Positions 5,929-25,579 are shown, counted from the first letter of the stretch. The stretch is 64,000 nucleotides of DNA from an uncultured Clostridium sp. (GCA_946639585.1 CAMPBS010000002.1:16994-80993), one strand, 5' to 3'. Notes: generated by a model from the letters alone, not told the origin. Program-made: numbers and translations.

Positions 5929-6771
5929 ATGAATGTAACACTGCCAGACAATAAATTGGATAAAAAGACTATAATGGTGTATGCAATAATCATTTTCATA
6001 TGTATTGCATCTATTTTTGCTGTTGTTTGGATGCAATTTTTTGATGGCGAAATTGTTGAAACAGTTGGAACTCTGAAAGGTAAGAGTGACCACGATTATA
6101 ATAATTTAAAAGCGGAATTCAATGAATTACTTACAAATGATATACAGAATTATGATGAAAAATATAATAACAAAAAAGAAAGCTTGACAAATGATATAGT
6201 ATATACTGTTTGTGAGGAAAATGCTTCATCAGGAGATGATTACAATATTCAAGTTAAAATTCCATATATAAATATAAAGAGTAAAACAGTTAAAGAGTAT
6301 AATAATGAAATTAAAAAGACTTTTATTGATAAAGTAGAATCAATTAAAAATACTAAAAATAAACATTCAACATATTCGGTTCAATATGGGGGATATGTAC
6401 AAGATGGAGTTTTATCAGTAGTGATAAAAGCAGAAATACAAGAAGGAACAAAAGCTCAAAGAACAGTAATAAAAACATTTAATTATGATTTAGAAAATAA
6501 CAGTGAAATTTCTTTTAATAAATTACTTCAAACAAAAAAAGTAAGTTTGGAATATGCTCAGGACAGAATCAACAAAGAAGCACAAATAGGTGCCAAAAAA
6601 TCTGAGGATATTAAAGCTATGGGATATGAAATTTATGAAAGAAATCTTGAAGATTCTATGTATAAAGTTGAAAATATTAAAGAATTTTATTTCCATGATG
6701 GAACAATATATGTAATGTTTGCGTACGGAAATACTAAATATACAAATGAATTAGATATAGCTGTAATATAA
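5929..6771 (+). CDS. membrane-anchored protein, DUF4163/DUF3298-like (RsiV/PdaC N-terminal-like)
   Basis: An RBS (agaaagaggg) precedes the ATG at 5929, followed by an N-terminal TM helix. The family assignment rests on overall composition and pattern only. Confidence 0.45.
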   Translation: MNVTLPDNKLDKKTIMVYAIIIFICIASIFAVVWMQFFDGEIVETVGTLKGKSDHDYNNLKAEFNELLTNDIQNYDEKYNNKKESLTNDIVYTVCEENASSGDDYNIQVKIPYINIKSKTVKEYNNEIKKTFIDKVESIKNTKNKHSTYSVQYGGYVQDGVLSVVIKAEIQEGTKAQRTVIKTFNYDLENNSEISFNKLLQTKKVSLEYAQDRINKEAQIGAKKSEDIKAMGYEIYERNLEDSMYKVENIKEFYFHDGTIYVMFAYGNTKYTNELDIAVI

Positions 6772-6790
6772 AAATAAAATTAAAAACCTG

Positions 6791-6822
6791 CAAGTTTAAC
6801 TTGCAGGTTTTTAAAAATAAAA
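6791..6822. terminator. intrinsic terminator
   Basis: Hairpin aaacctgcaagtttaacttgcaggttttt. Confidence 0.7.
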
Positions 6823-6968
6823 GGGGATGTTTTCTTAATTTTTAGTTAGGTTCTCATTCCTAACTTGTTTATATTATATATTTTGTTTTTGTCCATTGTG
6901 TGAACTCAGGGTGAAAAAACGGAAAAATAAAAATCGCATTGCGATTTTTATTTTTATGATTTTTAAAA

Positions 6969-8288
6969 TTATGGTTGTTCTCCTAAAATAACAGTAATTT
7001 CTTCTTCTTTGTTATTTCTATTAATTTTTAATTTTAGTTCATCACCAATATTTTTGGAATTTTTTATTTCATTTAATTCGTCCATTTTAGTGATTTTTTT
7101 GCCATCAACTTCTATAATTACATCACCAACTTTTATGCCAGATTTTTCAGCAGCTGAGAAGTCTTCTATAGTTTTTACATAAATACCAACAACTAAATTA
7201 TGGGCTTTGGCAGTTTTTTCATCTAAATCAACTCCACCAATTCCAATAAACGGTCTTTTAACCTTACTGTATTGAATTAATTGCTCTGTTATATTTGATG
7301 TTGAATTAATTGGAATAGCAAATCCCATTCCTTCAACGCCTGTTCCTGAAAGTTTTAAAGTATTTACACCAATTACCTTTCCTTCACTATTTACTAAAGC
7401 TCCACCACTATTACCAGAGTTTATAGCAGCATCTGTTTGAATTAGTTTGAAAGATTTTCCTTCAGTATCTGTAACTTCTCTGTTTACAGCACTTACAACA
7501 CCACATGTTATACTACTTTGCATTCCAAGTGGATTTCCTACAGCCATAGCAAATTCACCAACTTTAATAGAATCGGAATCAGCAAATTCTGCTTTTGTTA
7601 GTCCTGTTTTATCAATTTTTATAACAGCTAAATCTGTTTGCTCATCTTTTCCAATTATTTTGGCATCATATTCAGTTTCATCATCATAAAGAGTAACTGT
7701 AACTTTATTTGCTTCTGAAACTTGATAGAATGAATCAGATGATGATGAAGCAACAATGTGGTTATTTGTTAAAATGTAACCGTCATCACTAATTATAATT
7801 CCAGACCCTGAAGCTGTTGCAGATGAGGTTTGAGGTCTACTAGACAAACCAAACATACTATAATAATTTGAACTTACTGTATAATCTACTTTAATTCCTA
7901 CAATTGATGGTAATATTTTATTTGCAGCATATATAGAAGTATTTGAATATTTATCTAAATCAACTTGTTTTACAGTACCATTAGAACTTGTATTAGTGCT
8001 TGGAGCAGTACTAATAACATTGCTTGTAGGAAATACTGCTTTTTTGATTTCTGGAACGAATAGGATAGTTCCCATTACAGTGGCACAGCCTATAATACCG
8101 CTTACAAAAGGTATTATAACGCTTTTTCCAAAAGAATATGTTTTAGGAGATTTCTCTTTTTTTGTTTTCTCCTTTTTTATTTTAGGTTGTTTTAAATTAT
8201 TGGCAGTATTTGGTACTGCTTTGAAATTGTGATTAATCTCAGAAGTATTATTTTGAGTTGCATTATTATCATTTTTTATTTCATTCAT
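6969..8288 (-). CDS. htrA: serine protease HtrA/DegP (trypsin-like domain plus PDZ)
   Basis: The catalytic triad context is present (TNNHIV, DLAVIKI, GNSGGALVN) with a C-terminal PDZ domain. The RBS supports the ATG at 8288. Confidence 0.85.
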   Translation of the reverse strand: MNEIKNDNNATQNNTSEINHNFKAVPNTANNLKQPKIKKEKTKKEKSPKTYSFGKSVIIPFVSGIIGCATVMGTILFVPEIKKAVFPTSNVISTAPSTNTSSNGTVKQVDLDKYSNTSIYAANKILPSIVGIKVDYTVSSNYYSMFGLSSRPQTSSATASGSGIIISDDGYILTNNHIVASSSSDSFYQVSEANKVTVTLYDDETEYDAKIIGKDEQTDLAVIKIDKTGLTKAEFADSDSIKVGEFAMAVGNPLGMQSSITCGVVSAVNREVTDTEGKSFKLIQTDAAINSGNSGGALVNSEGKVIGVNTLKLSGTGVEGMGFAIPINSTSNITEQLIQYSKVKRPFIGIGGVDLDEKTAKAHNLVVGIYVKTIEDFSAAEKSGIKVGDVIIEVDGKKITKMDELNEIKNSKNIGDELKLKINRNNKEEEITVILGEQP

Positions 8289-20717: not shown

Positions 20718-21395
20718 ATGAATAAAATAAAAGTTATTTACGAAGATAATCACATAATTGTGGTAGAAAAAACACCAAACATTCCATCACAAGCAGATAA
20801 AACAGGTGATATAGACATGCTGAGTTTGGTAAAAGATTATATAAAAGAAAAATATAATAAACCAGGAAATGTTTATTTAGGTTTAGTTCATAGGCTAGAT
20901 AGACCAGTTGGTGGAATTATGGTATTTGCTAAAACTTCTAAAGCAGCATCAAGACTAAGCGAAGAAGTTAGAAACAAAACATTTCAAAAGAAGTATTTAG
21001 CAGTTGTAGATGGAAAAATTGAGCAAGACGCGGGAACATTAGAAGATTACTTATATAAAGATGAAAGAAATAATATGAGTAAAGTAGTAAGTGCTACAAA
21101 GAAAAATGCAAAACTTGCCAAATTAGATTACAAAGTTTTAAAATATGATGAAGTGAAAAAATTAAGTTTAGTAGAAATAGATTTACATACAGGAAGACAT
21201 CATCAAATAAGAGTACAGCTAAGCCATTTTGGACATAGCATATTTGGTGATCAAAAGTATGGAACAAGAGGACAAGGAAAACAAATTGCACTTTGGGCAT
21301 ACAAATTAAAAATTGTGCATCCCACAACAAAAGAAGAAATGGAATTTGAAGATTTGCCAGAATCAGTTGGAACATGGTGCATATTGAAGAAATAA
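20718..21395 (+). CDS. RluA-family pseudouridine synthase
   Basis: It has the HRLDRPVGGIMVFAKT catalytic Asp motif. The ATG sits at 20718. Confidence 0.8.
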   Translation: MNKIKVIYEDNHIIVVEKTPNIPSQADKTGDIDMLSLVKDYIKEKYNKPGNVYLGLVHRLDRPVGGIMVFAKTSKAASRLSEEVRNKTFQKKYLAVVDGKIEQDAGTLEDYLYKDERNNMSKVVSATKKNAKLAKLDYKVLKYDEVKKLSLVEIDLHTGRHHQIRVQLSHFGHSIFGDQKYGTRGQGKQIALWAYKLKIVHPTTKEEMEFEDLPESVGTWCILKK

Positions 21396-21403
21396 AAAAG
21401 AAG

Positions 21404-21444
21404 GCTGGCGAGCAATCTGGGGACACTTCCCAAATTGCTCGCCA
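21404..21444. repeat. hairpin carrying the CTGGGGACACTTCCCAAA core (copy C)
   Basis: The stem ctggcgagcaat / attgctcgccag encloses the conserved core. It lies downstream of the rluA-family gene. Confidence 0.65.
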
Positions 21445-21468
21445 GTCTTCTCTTCATCTTTATGTCAA

Positions 21469-21497
21469 TTTTACAAAGCGTAAAATAGTTTTACAAA
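21469..21497 (+). promoter_or_regulatory. LytTR-type direct repeats (TTTTACAAA-N11-TTTTACAAA) upstream of agrB
   Basis: It is a 9 bp direct repeat with a 20 bp period, typical of AgrA-like binding sites. Confidence 0.5.
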
Positions 21498-21609
21498 AAT
21501 AGCATTTTAAACTTTTCATAAAACAAAAATACCATCTTATAAACGAAATGAAAAATGTCGAAAATTAAGTGATAAACTCACCCTAACAACACAAAAGAGG
21601 GGTGAGGAA

Positions 21610-22221
21610 ATGATAGATAAAATCTGTGAATTTCTAACCAATAAGATACGAAAGGAAATGCCAGAAATTGATGACGAGAGGGCAGAAATAATAAATTATG
21701 GACTACAAAATATTATAGGAGAAATTCCTAAAATATTTATAACATTGGGAATCGCATTGATATTTGGAATTTTTGATTTAACATTTTACACATTTTTAAT
21801 ATTACTACCATATAAAGCATTTTCAGGAGGATTCCATTTGAAAACACATATTGGTTGTATAATTTGCACAACTGCAATGTATTGTGGAATAGCACTTTTG
21901 AGTAAATACATTATTTTAACTGAAATTGCAAAATACATTTTAATAGCCTTGATTTGGGTATTTGGAATGTGGATGGTAAAATTATATGCGCCAGCAGATA
22001 CAGAAAATGTGCCAATACTAAGGAAAAAAGATAGAAGAAAAAAGCAAATATTATCATACATTGCTTTAACAATTGGGCTTGTTATAGCATTGCTTATCCC
22101 TTATGGAGAAATTGCAAATATATTGATATTTGGCAGTTTCATTCAAACACTTTGTACAACAAAATTTGTTTATAAAATTACAAACAACAAATATGGTTAT
22201 GAAGTGTATGGAAATAGTTAA
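21610..22221 (+). CDS. agrB: accessory gene regulator B (AgrD-processing membrane peptidase)
   Basis: It is a multi-TM protein with the conserved His/Cys motif SGGFHLKTHIGCIICT. Confidence 0.75.
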   Translation: MIDKICEFLTNKIRKEMPEIDDERAEIINYGLQNIIGEIPKIFITLGIALIFGIFDLTFYTFLILLPYKAFSGGFHLKTHIGCIICTTAMYCGIALLSKYIILTEIAKYILIALIWVFGMWMVKLYAPADTENVPILRKKDRRKKQILSYIALTIGLVIALLIPYGEIANILIFGSFIQTLCTTKFVYKITNNKYGYEVYGNS

Positions 22222-22281
22222 AGGATAATAACGACATGAAATGTCGTAATTATAAAAATTATTTTCAAAGGAGGGATTTAT

Positions 22282-22401
22282 ATGTTTAAATTTCTAGCAA
22301 AGGCAGCTGAAAAATATGCAAAGGCAACAAATACTGCATGTTTAGTATTATGGGTGTTACATCAACCTAAAATGCCTACAAGCTTAATAAAAAAAGATTA
22401 A
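22282..22401 (+). CDS. agrD: autoinducing peptide precursor AgrD (39 aa), too short for the ORF track
   Basis: A GGAGGG RBS precedes MFKFLAKAAEKYAKATNTACLVLWVLHQPKMPTSLIKKD. The core motif C-L-V-L-W...HQPxxPxSL matches clostridial AgrD precursors. Confidence 0.7.
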   Translation: MFKFLAKAAEKYAKATNTACLVLWVLHQPKMPTSLIKKD

Positions 22402-22517
22402 TTATAAACATTTAACATAGTTATTAAATTTCCTAGCATTTCGTCAACTATGCTAGGAGATCCTTAAATAAATTTCGACATCCAAAAAGGAAGTGCATAG
22501 CACTTCCTTTTTGGTAT

Positions 22518-23864
22518 CTAATTATAAATTTCAAATTGTTGTGAAAAATACTTATCATCCTTTGTTGTATGTAAATTAAGGTTATTATTGGCTTGTAGTA
22601 TTTTACGAATTTCCCACAAGCCCAATCCAGTATGATTTTCTTTGCTTGTTTTACCTTTTTCAAATATAGCATCGATATCTACATTTTTATCTTTATAAGA
22701 ATTTTCTATTTTTAGATATTGCATATTATTTTTTTCATCATCCTTAAAAGTAACATTTATTATTTTTTCTTCACTTTCTTTTGCAGCATCGATTGCATTA
22801 TCTATTAAGATACCAAATATCTTGGTGAATTCATATATTTTCATATTTATTTTAGATAAATCCCATAATACTGTAATATTCATTTTAATATTTAGTTCTT
22901 CAGCTTCATTATATTTTGTTGTTAATAAACTATATATTCCAGGATTATTTATAATATTTGGATTTAACATATACATTCTATTAACCTTTAAACATTCATC
23001 TTCAAGCTGTGAATAGTATTGTTTCAAGCCTTCCATATCATTTGTTCTTATATATCCGCCAATTGCAGCAACAGTATTATCATAATCATGTTTAAATCCT
23101 CTAATATTATCATGCAAAATTTGTAGTGTTTTATTATATTCTTCAGCATTTTCTAGTCGTTTGGCAGTTAAATATAGTTGATTAGTTTTAGTTAAACTAT
23201 ATATATTTATAGAAAAATATGCCAAAAGGGAAATAAAACTTAATAGAGTTATTATTATTGGCAATGATTCTACATAATATAATGTTATTATAAATTGGAT
23301 TGCTAAAACAACAAAGCCTAATATTAAATTTGTAATTAAAAGTTTTTTAGATTTTTTATCTAAATCTTCCAAGACTCTTATATATAAATTTTTATGTTTT
23401 AATACTTTTATAACTCCAAATGTACATATATAAGAAATAAATAAGTATCCGACTCTATATATAGGTATGCTATGTATTATTTCATAATCAACATTTAAGA
23501 TTTTCATAAAAGGATTTAATACAAGTGTTCCAATTAAAGCATATATTATTGTAGGCAATATAATTGCTAAAATACTTTTCAATATTGAAATTTTAAAAAC
23601 AAATTTTATTGCTAAAAACAAAATAATATAGTTAATAAAAGAATTGAATGGGGCTGGCAAATAAAGAAGCGATATCATTGATGTTAATGATGAGATTAAC
23701 AAATACATTCCTTTTTGTTTTTTACTACCCTTAATATTTAATAAATATAAGAATAAGTATAAAATCAATGCATTTTCGACAATAAATAATGGTAATGCAA
23801 TTAGATTTACTACCCCCTCATTAGGCGTACTTATCGCCGTCCAAATATTACCCCATAAATCCAT
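22518..23864 (-). CDS. agrC: AgrC-like sensor histidine kinase (multi-TM sensor plus HATPase_c)
   Basis: It has 6-7 TM helices, a conserved His region and a GHKL ATPase motif (ILIDNAIDAA...GLGL). It overlaps the agrA stop. Confidence 0.75.
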   Translation of the reverse strand: MDLWGNIWTAISTPNEGVVNLIALPLFIVENALILYLFLYLLNIKGSKKQKGMYLLISSLTSMISLLYLPAPFNSFINYIILFLAIKFVFKISILKSILAIILPTIIYALIGTLVLNPFMKILNVDYEIIHSIPIYRVGYLFISYICTFGVIKVLKHKNLYIRVLEDLDKKSKKLLITNLILGFVVLAIQFIITLYYVESLPIIITLLSFISLLAYFSINIYSLTKTNQLYLTAKRLENAEEYNKTLQILHDNIRGFKHDYDNTVAAIGGYIRTNDMEGLKQYYSQLEDECLKVNRMYMLNPNIINNPGIYSLLTTKYNEAEELNIKMNITVLWDLSKINMKIYEFTKIFGILIDNAIDAAKESEEKIINVTFKDDEKNNMQYLKIENSYKDKNVDIDAIFEKGKTSKENHTGLGLWEIRKILQANNNLNLHTTKDDKYFSQQFEIYN

Positions 23865-24564
23865 AATTATTCAAAACCTCCAACAAATTACTTTTATACT
23901 TAGGACCAATATCGCAACTAAAATTACTATTATTAAAAATAAGTCTATTTTCAACAGGTTCTAAATTACTAATTTTATTTATATTGGCAATATAAGATTT
24001 GTGACATCTAACAAAGTTTTCAGGCAACGTATCTTTTACTTTATTGAATGAACTATAGATTTCATAATCTCTGCTATCAGTGCAAAATACTAGTTTCATA
24101 CCATCTCTTTTAATATAATTGATTTCATTTTCATCAATAATTGTATTTTTATTATCAATTTTTAAATATTTCTTTGGTTTACTATAAATATCATCATATA
24201 ACCTAGTAATAGTTTCTTCTAATCTTTCTTGAGTGATAGGTTTTGAAATATAATCAAAAGTCTTAAATTTATAGGCAACCATGGCATATTCCAAATGACC
24301 TGTTATAAAAATTATATATGTACTTTTATTTTTCGCTCTAATTTCTTGTGCTAATTCAAGACCAGTTTTCTTAGCTTTTAAATTGATATCTAAAAAAACA
24401 ACATCTATATTGTTTGCACAAACATAATTAATAATATTGTCTGGATTGTCAGTTGCAAGTTCAACTTTGGCATCATAATTATATTTTACAAAAATGTTTT
24501 CCATCAAGTTAGAAAGCTTGTTTAAAATATTTAAATTGTCCTCACATATTACAAAACGTAGCAT
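23848..24564 (-). CDS. agrA: AgrA-like LytTR-family response regulator
   Basis: It has a REC domain (VVFLDINL) and a C-terminal LytTR domain. Confidence 0.8.
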   Translation of the reverse strand: MLRFVICEDNLNILNKLSNLMENIFVKYNYDAKVELATDNPDNIINYVCANNIDVVFLDINLKAKKTGLELAQEIRAKNKSTYIIFITGHLEYAMVAYKFKTFDYISKPITQERLEETITRLYDDIYSKPKKYLKIDNKNTIIDENEINYIKRDGMKLVFCTDSRDYEIYSSFNKVKDTLPENFVRCHKSYIANINKISNLEPVENRLIFNNSNFSCDIGPKYKSNLLEVLNNYGFMG

Positions 24565-24802
24565 TTTAAAATCCCCCTAAATTCATATAAAAAAATCCAA
24601 TTTTTACCAAAAAAATCCAATTTTTCAGTAGCCATATAAATATAATTCAAAAATTTTATATTGTCAAGAATAATTGACAAAATTTTACAGCTACATAATA
24701 TGTGTAGTATGTAAAAACGTTACAATACTGAGTGATATCACAAAAAATTTATTGACCAAAGTTTATTATTATGATATATTGTGTAAGAGGAGAAATAAAA
24801 AA

Positions 24803-25579
24803 ATGGAATTTATGGTTATGTTATTTTTGGCACCAATAATAGGTGGAATTATAGGACTAATTGTAAGAAAAAAAGTATTAAAAAAACTTAATCCTGAAGT
24901 GGAAGGATTTTTAAATAAAAGGGGAACTACATTAGAAAGTGAATTACAAAAATTTATAGATTCACAAAACTTAAATGAAAAAGTTTTAACTGCGCGTATG
25001 AGCAGCATTTATAAATATAAAAATAATGAATGTACATGTATTATTGTTAAATTTAAAATAGAAGGAAAAAGTGATTGGTATGCCGGAATTGTAAGCGATT
25101 CAGGAACATATACTGACCTGAAAAAGTTTAACCTAATGACATCAATTCAAGATACTAATATATTATTACAAAAAATTTATAAACAACCTACAAGAGAAAT
25201 CAATGAGGATTGTTTAATATATTTGCCTAAATTAGAAAACATATATCATTTTAGAATTCAACCTGATGAAAAAGTTATATTCAATTCGAAAATAAATAAT
25301 GTTAGAATAGACAATAATTTATCAATAGGAAGAAATGCCAAACTTACTATGACTGATAAGAGGATATTCATATTTAATGGAGTTGGATTATGGACAATTG
25401 AGCTTTATAATGACATATCAGATTATAAAAGAGAAGAATCATATTTAGAGATAGCACTTTCAGAAATATGTATTTTCGGACAAGCTGGAGAAAGAATTTG
25501 TACTGGATTTAAATTCTTTTTTGATAATACTGAGGAATTAGATAAATTTGAAAATATTTTGAATAATATAATACAATAA
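24803..25579 (+). CDS. hypothetical membrane-anchored protein (PH-domain-like C-terminal region)
   Basis: An RBS (agaggag) precedes the ATG at 24803, followed by an N-terminal TM helix. Confidence 0.45.
   Translation: MEFMVMLFLAPIIGGIIGLIVRKKVLKKLNPEVEGFLNKRGTTLESELQKFIDSQNLNEKVLTARMSSIYKYKNNECTCIIVKFKIEGKSDWYAGIVSDSGTYTDLKKFNLMTSIQDTNILLQKIYKQPTREINEDCLIYLPKLENIYHFRIQPDEKVIFNSKINNVRIDNNLSIGRNAKLTMTDKRIFIFNGVGLWTIELYNDISDYKREESYLEIALSEICIFGQAGERICTGFKFFFDNTEELDKFENILNNIIQ

Follow-up and report, generated by a model that had tools for sequence, protein, structure and literature searches.

A complete agr-type peptide quorum-sensing locus with a variable signal cassette in an uncultured gut or rumen Clostridia bacterium

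The locus and its closest described relatives

The best-matching characterised relative of the locus described here, in both organisation and the motif that follows the signal, is the agr system of Clostridium acetobutylicum, in which the AgrD precursor reads CVLVTL followed by YEPKMPEE and the autoinducing peptide (AIP) was confirmed by mass spectrometry as a six-residue macrocycle. In Clostridioides difficile, AgrD1 carries CPWII followed by HQPK, the AIP of C. perfringens is CLWFT, and CVGIW of L. plantarum ends in Trp. Macrocycles of 5, 6 and 9 residues are given in a recent primer, five-residue rings being by far the commonest, and the mining of gut AIPs at large scale has already been published. 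Here, a stretch of 64,000 nucleotides from an uncultured Clostridium sp. (GCA_946639585.1 CAMPBS010000002.1:16994-80993; G+C 28%) was analysed, and the whole of it is called the window below. It holds two convergent operons, agrB-agrD on the plus strand and a regulator-kinase pair on the minus strand, which form a real and complete agr-type peptide quorum-sensing system of an uncultured gut or rumen Clostridia bacterium. A first-pass annotation of the window had described the locus as complete, and the family matches for agrB, agrD, the kinase and the regulator agreed with it, as did all of its coordinates.

The agrB gene (21610-22221, plus strand) encodes the membrane peptidase-cyclase and matched the Pfam family AgrB (PF04647) with an E-value of 4e-39 and 134 bits against a cut-off of 23. 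A scan with AgrB, keeping one genome per species, gave 80 related loci with AgrB identities of 53-95%, all belonging to uncultured Clostridia from the guts of goats, buffaloes, rabbits, chickens, mice and humans, among them Clostridium sp. CAG:440 and CAG:389. In 79 AgrB sequences the residues G73-G74-x-H76 and C83 were at least 97% conserved, and H76 and C83 are taken by us to be the equivalents of H77 and C84 of S. aureus. A sequence search of the PDB with AgrB found no solved relative on which the catalytic residues could be mapped.

Sixty nucleotides after agrB and preceded by the ribosome-binding site GGAGGG lies an open reading frame (ORF) of 39 codons (22282-22401, plus strand), which encodes the 39-residue precursor MFKFLAKAAEKYAKATNTACLVLWVLHQPKMPTSLIKKD. 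The peptide matched the NCBIfam model TIGR04223 ("AgrD family cyclic lactone autoinducer peptide") with 27 bits, above the curated cut-off of 19, and an E-value of 3.7e-6. By tblastn, agrD was found directly downstream of agrB in 80/80 loci, always with an ATG start and a strong ribosome-binding site, and the distance from the agrB stop was 58-88 nt in the 30 spacers inspected. The ORF is a genuine agrD. The first-pass annotation had named it so and had suggested an alignment to the AgrD family profile, which the peptide passed; the conservation in all loci and the amphipathic leader described below agreed as well. Its novelty as an "unannotated" gene did not survive, since the ORF was missing from the ORF track only through a length cut-off. 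Gene calls for exactly this peptide exist in assemblies of ENA, JGI and Logan, and the ORF is already recognised by standard gene-calling pipelines.

On the minus strand, the regulator gene precedes the kinase gene, the two sharing 17 nt where the former ends and the latter starts. The agrA-like response regulator (23848-24564) consists of REC and LytTR domains (PF00072 at 5e-18 and PF04397 at 1.3e-17), with D9, D59, T88 and K108 conserved. The agrC-like sensor histidine kinase (22518-23864) has a polytopic sensor of about 235 residues, an H-box and a GHKL domain (HATPase_c_5 at 1.8e-15), with H259, N356 and G413/G415 conserved. These matches and residues identified the pair as a cognate polytopic HPK10-type kinase with a LytTR regulator, and together with the coordinates they upheld the convergent agrA-agrC arrangement that had been proposed. 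The convergent pair was present in nearly all related loci whose contig reaches far enough, and a 121-kb ENA contig showed the same gene order as the window. Against the staphylococcal AgrC model (NF046015) the kinase scored 123 bits (E=1.4e-35) with an equivalog cut-off of 500, and against the staphylococcal AgrA model (NF046049) the regulator scored 74.5 bits with an equivalog cut-off of 400. Because these scores are far below the equivalog cut-offs, the two proteins are family members or relatives of staphylococcal AgrC and AgrA and not orthologues. The closest full-length LytTR regulator in the PDB was ComE (4cbv).

Compared to C. acetobutylicum, the locus has the same separation into agrBD and agrCA-type operons and a similar tail motif (HQPKMP here, YEPKMP there), and its predicted AIP would likewise have a ring of more than five residues, probably without an N-terminal tail, which can rearrange to a lactam. 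Differently from that system, the two operons run towards each other, the regulator gene comes before the kinase gene, the leader has 19 residues instead of about 32, and six cassette residues instead of five follow the Cys, so that the predicted ring size is 7 and not 6. No LanM-like gene was found among the neighbours scanned, which are a 258-residue protein without Pfam match and a LysR-type regulator; the two marks of the C. acetobutylicum-type subgroup with six-membered rings, C-X5 before [YH][EQ]PK and an adjacent LanM-like gene, were thus both missing. With C. perfringens and C. difficile, the locus shares a follower that starts with HQP(K) and a Cys as ring nucleophile. Their precursors have C-X4-HQP and a five-residue ring, whereas C-X6-HQP was found here, and their agrBD (agr1 in C. 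difficile) has no adjacent agrCA, whereas cognate AgrA and AgrC are adjacent here.

The four-component logic, the His/Cys pair of AgrB seven residues apart and the tripartite AgrD are shared with agrBDCA of S. aureus, as are a hypervariable AgrD core and AgrC sensor that define specificity groups and two repeat pairs before a weak agr promoter. Unlike in S. aureus, there is no divergent RNAIII-type transcript and no space for one, AgrB is not hypervariable (99% identical between pherotypes), the sequence and orientation of the boxes differ, the kinase and the regulator have a strong promoter of their own, and the staphylococcal equivalog models were not reached. The fsr system of Enterococcus faecalis provides a precedent for an agr-type macrocycle of more than six residues, the nine-residue lactone GBAP, but GBAP, a Ser lactone bearing a tail of two residues, derives from FsrD, which has no sequence relationship to the leader or the tail found here.

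The AgrD cassette, the AgrC sensor and the predicted ring

The AgrD precursor is made up of a leader (residues 1-19), Cys20 (22339-22341), a variable cassette (residues 21-26, 22342-22359) and HQPKMP with the remaining tail (22360-22398). A search with a profile from a 16-sequence alignment returned 3380 AgrD homologues, a few of them named "cyclic lactone autoinducer peptide" by NCBI, and the top 120 database clusters contained 114 distinct cassettes. The entropy of each position was determined from 192 distinct sequences. At 14 of the 19 leader positions the entropy was at most about 0.5 bit, only positions 2, 4, 8 and 15 being clearly variable, and the leader was amphipathic, with a hydrophobic moment of 0.51 compared with 0.21 in shuffles (p=0.004). 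Ring residue 20 was Cys in 189 sequences and Ser in 3, the six residues that follow had entropies of 2.2-3.0 bits each, and His27-Gln-Pro-Lys-Met-Pro was invariant at 0 bits. The peptide therefore has all three AgrD parts, an amphipathic leader, a variable core that begins with Cys or Ser and a conserved, charged tail containing Pro. Separately, Ser was seen in place of the ring Cys in the agrD genes of loci L060, L074 and L075 (e.g. ...NTASFFILIWHQP), which predicts lactone instead of thiolactone signals within the same family.

In near-identical backgrounds, divergence was limited to the AgrD cassette and the first 235 or so residues of AgrC. Loci L020 and L022 had AgrB 99%, AgrA 100% and the kinase half of AgrC about 100% identical, whereas the AgrC sensor was 30-70% identical in 30-residue windows and five of the six cassette residues differed (CMVLWAW in L020, CIAMWVF in L022). 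Between our locus and its closest relative, L001, the AgrC sensor was only 58% identical, compared with 92-95% for the AgrC kinase, AgrB and AgrA. The same trend was found in 13 close pairs, in which the sensor was 47-85% and the kinase 91-99% identical, the cores differed and all six cassette positions varied; core and sensor thus co-vary as in agr-type specificity groups. This co-divergence of cassette and sensor, against which AgrB, AgrA and the kinase half of AgrC kept 91-100% identity, is the classic pherotype signature, the pattern of the staphylococcal specificity groups. AgrB lies outside the hypervariable block, which is consistent with its recognising just the invariant parts of AgrD, the leader and the tail.

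Given these boundaries, the size of the ring was considered. The core was C-X6 before HQP in 78/80 loci and C-X5 in the other two. In the mapped AIPs that were compared, several clostridial ones included, the ring ended in every case where the conserved follower begins. HQPKMP aligns with YEPKMP of C. acetobutylicum, and homologous cleavage would therefore release Cys with six residues, CLVLWVL. On balance we favour this seven-residue ring, which we infer by analogy with the mapped peptides. The six-residue ring C-L-V-L-W-V of the first-pass annotation was not borne out, as exactly six cassette residues follow the Cys and the mapped clostridial AIPs predict a ring of seven. Apart from this, the ring size may differ (6 versus 7) within one family with very similar AgrB, as the two C-X5 loci (L017 and L073) indicated.

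Alternatively, the signal might be a canonical five-residue ring, CLVLW, with cleavage by AgrB two positions ahead of HQP and loss of the final two variable residues. Position +4 of the cassette shows the least diversity in residue identity (110 of the 192 sequences have Trp there and 27 have Gly), five-residue rings are the commonest by far, and the AIP of L. plantarum also ends in Trp. The variation beyond +4 speaks against such a ring, however: the entropy at +5 and +6 (2.3-2.4 bits) was as high as at the other positions and fell to 0 exactly at His27, and +6 differed in 7 of 13 close pairs with AgrB 90-99% identical. Our locus and L001 differed in the cassette at +6 only, yet their AgrC sensors had diverged to the extent given above, and in every mapped case the ring end coincides with the start of the conserved tail. 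The five-residue ring is accordingly a possible reading but a rather unlikely one. The calculated [M+H]+ is 827.4848 for CLVLWVL, 714.4007 for the six-residue ring and 615.3323 for CLVLW, and forms with a tail would have 898.5219 or 999.5696. The preferred, unusually large ring of seven residues is predicted from the comparison of the 80 loci, by which the signal cassette was delimited to the six residues after Cys; the predicted ring size of 7 was not described in the literature searched, in which rings of 5, 6 and 9 are.

Promoters and repeats of the two operons

Upstream of agrB, the first-pass annotation had noted a direct repeat of 9 bp, TTTTACAAA, at 21469-21477 and 21489-21497 with a spacer of 11 nt and a period of 20, and had called its spacing LytTR-like; a second repeat, AAAAAAATCCAATTTTT, had been noted near agrA. 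Neither was compelling within the window alone, where 21-22 of 100 shuffles matched as often with up to 2 mismatches, and the conservation in related loci was taken as decisive. The agrBD promoter has an extended -10 element, TGATAAACT (21570-21578, plus strand), and the motif TGnTAnAnT was present 20-80 nt before the ATG in 58/78 loci. No recognisable -35 element was found, GAAAAA standing at the expected place. When the upstream regions of these 58 loci were anchored on the extended -10, the pattern TTTNNNAAA formed four sharp peaks at 100, 80, 56 and 35 nt before the TG, with a background of 0-4 per position. The peaks of information content persisted in 37 non-redundant loci (<85% AgrB identity), and the spacers between them were not conserved.

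In the window, all four boxes lie on the plus strand. Box 1 (TTTTACAAAG, 21469-21478) and box 2 (TTTTACAAAA, 21489-21498), the two copies of the repeat noted earlier, are 20 bp apart and follow the consensus TTTAYRAAA; they were found at -101 to -99 relative to the extended -10 in 46/58 loci and at -81 to -79 in 41/58 loci, respectively. Box 3 (TTTCATAAA, 21514-21522; -57 to -55 in 50/58 loci) has the consensus TTTYRTAAA, the reverse complement of boxes 1 and 2. The promoter-proximal box 4 (TCTTATAAA, 21535-21543) is 21 bp from box 3, was located at -36 to -34 in 57/58 loci, and was the best conserved, with all six T3/A3 positions matched in 46/58 loci. The array thus consists of two direct-repeat pairs placed head to head, with box spacings of 20, 24 and 21 bp. 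The TTTTACAAA pair is its two distal boxes, half of a larger conserved operator. The earlier observation was therefore right in that the repeats are real, conserved in orthologous loci at fixed positions and have a period of about 20-21 bp, and incomplete in that they are only half of a four-box element.

For a LytTR regulator such as AgrA, one expects 9-bp repeats that recur every two helical turns and stand directly before an activator-dependent promoter. The boxes are plausible candidate AgrA sites, and judged by repeat length, period and position AgrA probably binds them. Sequences of the ACAGTTAAG type are known LytTR sites, and the boxes are unlike them; a conserved A-tract also follows each box roughly in helical phase, and the repeat is not significant in the window alone. 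These features would suit boxes that are not AgrA sites at all, being either curved DNA of the UP-element kind, rich in A-tracts, or a site for some other regulator that is conserved. This explanation was considered unlikely, since the boxes have a defined orientation and prefer the central triplet Y-R-T or A-Y-R, with G or C enriched over the background of 28% G+C; since the spacing is kept within 1 bp across loci with AgrB 53-95% identical while the spacers diverge; and since the promoter lacks a -35 like activator-dependent promoters. Binding of the four boxes by AgrA is the more probable reading, and the operator is a candidate recognition sequence for clostridial AgrA, for which none was found in the literature searched.

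Other elements around the operator were inspected as well. A bidirectional terminator hairpin of the upstream RluA-type gene (21396-21454; an inverted repeat with 26-nt arms, 88% complementary, and a terminator-like site at 21445 to 21405) forms the left boundary of the agr regulatory region. A divergent RNAIII-like transcript from boxes 1 and 2 was rejected because this hairpin fills the 73 nt to the left, and in some loci (e.g. L067) the upstream gene runs right up to the boxes with its stop codon, which also counts against it. A hairpin sequestering the Shine-Dalgarno sequence in the agrB leader (CTCACCC/GGGTGAG) was rejected too, as its 5' arm overlaps the -10/+1 region and is probably untranscribed, and it is not a general feature of the family. 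When the window was searched for box pairs (19-22 bp spacing, at most 1 mismatch), 5 were found against 0.73 expected, two of them at agrB. As further AgrA targets, the pairs at 23480 (in agrC) and 42527 (in a small XRE-like ORF) were rejected, both being within coding sequence and looking like chance. The former (23480-23510, plus strand, opposite to the agrC coding strand) is a near-perfect pair, TTTCATAAT-N13-TTTCATAAA, with 22-bp spacing, and could be an internal AgrA site or due to chance. Immediately 5' of box 1, TTATGTnnA (21460-21468) is conserved in many loci and may be a fifth part of the operator; its reverse complement in the window reads TTGACA, and no matching -10 follows on the minus strand.

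The agrAC operon has a promoter of a different kind, TTGACA (24667-24662) and TATATT (24644-24639) separated by 17 nt on the minus strand, which matches the consensus at 11/12 positions; a promoter of this form was found on the agrA strand in 69/72 loci. The 17-bp tandem repeat AAAAAAATCCAATTTTT (24589-24605 and 24609-24625, minus strand) occupies about +12 to +50 after the -10, in the transcribed leader or over the start site. It had been proposed as a candidate AgrA site upstream of agrA. The exact copies and the 20-bp period were confirmed at those coordinates; the repeat is not upstream of the agrA promoter, however, and in sequence it does not resemble the agrB boxes. In 55/72 loci, the agrA -10 is followed at a distance of 9-14 nt (mostly 12) by a family element, tGGAAAAnTAAGGtAATTT, with which the promoter-proximal copy (24609-24625) aligns. 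The second copy had no counterpart in almost all related loci and was already degenerate in L001, the AgrA of which is 94-95% identical. Conservation in orthologous loci thus extends to the proximal copy, and the second copy is lineage-specific.

That the tandem at 24589-24625 is an AgrA site by which agrAC is autoregulated is very doubtful. It is a perfect tandem with a 20-bp period like that of the agrB boxes, and part of it coincides with the conserved family element. As the repeat is downstream of a conserved 11/12 promoter, AgrA could only repress there, and an activator site is therefore improbable; the repeat has no TTTYRTAAA box, and the second copy is restricted in its distribution as described. 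The tandem is most simply read as the product of recent slippage, by which 20 bp of a conserved leader or operator element were duplicated. Several further sequences were observed near this promoter. An inverted repeat, TTGTCAA-N6-TTGACAA (24661-24680), overlaps the agrA -35, and its left arm, when read along the agrA strand, matches a box with one mismatch (TTTTGTCAA) and lies 5 nt before the -35. In many other loci, TTGGATAAnTTTGTAAATT is found just upstream of the agrA -35, and many agrA leaders (among L003-L080) carry TGTCGAA, resembling a Spo0A box, about 30 nt beyond tGGAAAAnTAAGGtAATTT; neither is present in the window.

The proposed circuit and its setting

Two sets of RNA structures were found within the locus. 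Directly after the agrB stop, a stem-loop between agrB and agrD (22225-22253, plus strand; minimum free energy -9.8 kcal/mol) is followed by a conserved TATTATAwA. In folds of single sequences, a hairpin below -5 kcal/mol was present at this place in 74/80 loci with lineage-specific stem sequences. RNAalifold predicted no pairs on the alignment of the agrB-agrD spacers, in which MAFFT had put the lineage-specific stems out of register. The stem-loop could be an element of processing, stability or attenuation that sets the agrB:agrD ratio. Between the convergent operons, two hairpins (22428-22461 and 22482-22514) fold together with a minimum free energy of -38.7 kcal/mol over 22428-22514 (z=-9.85; 0/200 shuffles fold as well), and the second of them (A5-stem-U5) is a bidirectional intrinsic terminator. 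A scan of 21300-24900 against Rfam with E-values up to 1 found no known RNA family, the only matches being spurious miRNA-type ones on the terminator hairpin. At the corresponding terminator region of L001, a 2-kb insertion (6443-7720 of that locus) lies between agrD and agrC and encodes a reverse transcriptase/maturase-like protein of 425 residues with a YADD motif, typical of a group II intron.

The left flank of the locus, with genes for an S-adenosylmethionine (SAM) methyltransferase and an RluA-type pseudouridine synthase, was syntenic in about 50 loci. On the right, an ORF of 258 residues (24803-25579, plus strand), divergent from agrA and without Pfam or NCBIfam match, is followed by the LysR regulator, and at none of the 80 related loci was this flank adjacent to agr. 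L062 and L066 carry agrBD without agrA or agrC within 5 kb downstream, and the regions upstream of their agrB are still box-like.

In the circuit that we propose, AgrB would cut the invariant HQPKMPTSLIKKD tail off AgrD by means of His76 and Cys83 and would join the new C-terminus to Cys20 as a thiolactone, the amphipathic leader being removed next. The most likely product would be CLVLWVL, a macrocycle of seven residues, which would rearrange to a head-to-tail cyclopeptide if it lacks an N-terminal tail as other clostridial signals do. The peptide would be sensed by the hypervariable membrane domain of AgrC, and AgrC would phosphorylate AgrA. The agrAC operon would be transcribed from its near-consensus, probably constitutive promoter, and the four boxes would probably be bound by two AgrA dimers, so that agrBD would come under positive feedback.

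A functional agr-type AIP circuit, with convergent agrB-agrD and agrA-agrC operons and probable AgrA boxes, is the likely explanation of the locus as a whole. Several points weigh against it. The staphylococcal AgrC and AgrA models are the best-scoring NCBIfam models for the kinase and the regulator, yet their equivalog cut-offs were missed widely. The predominance of Trp and Gly at cassette position +4 leaves room for a five-residue ring ending there. The boxes differ in sequence from the AgrA consensus of staphylococci; they are A/T-rich and have A-tracts in phase, in a genome of 28% G+C, so that DNA curvature or an UP element may contribute; and head-to-head repeat pairs before a single operon differ from the textbook LytTR layout. 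The source organism, moreover, is uncultured. The reading of the 39-codon ORF as a chance ORF, with an orphan agrB beside an unrelated two-component system, is already effectively refuted, for although the peptide has no Pfam match and A+T-rich DNA often has short ORFs, the TIGR04223 score is above its cut-off, the ORF is kept in all 80 loci, purifying selection acting on its leader and tail while its core diversifies, the AgrC sensor has diverged along with the peptide, and the database homologues include some named by NCBI.

The locus adds little in itself, as agr is textbook biology and this is an ordinary member of a well-known family with relatives already annotated. It may be of use through the comparison with related loci, which points clearly to pherotype diversification in commensal anaerobes behind an invariant AgrB, whereas in staphylococci AgrB co-varies with the peptide. 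In the AgrD sequences examined, the top 120 clusters and 78/80 loci, all had C-X6-HQPKMP. We regard it as an evenly balanced prospect that this family would make seven-residue macrocycles and would have split into hundreds of pherotypes in uncultured Clostridia of gut and rumen, with AgrB, the leader and the tail unchanged. If true, the family would be a natural library in which to study how a single AgrB can cyclise many different heptapeptides and how the sensors of AgrC follow them.

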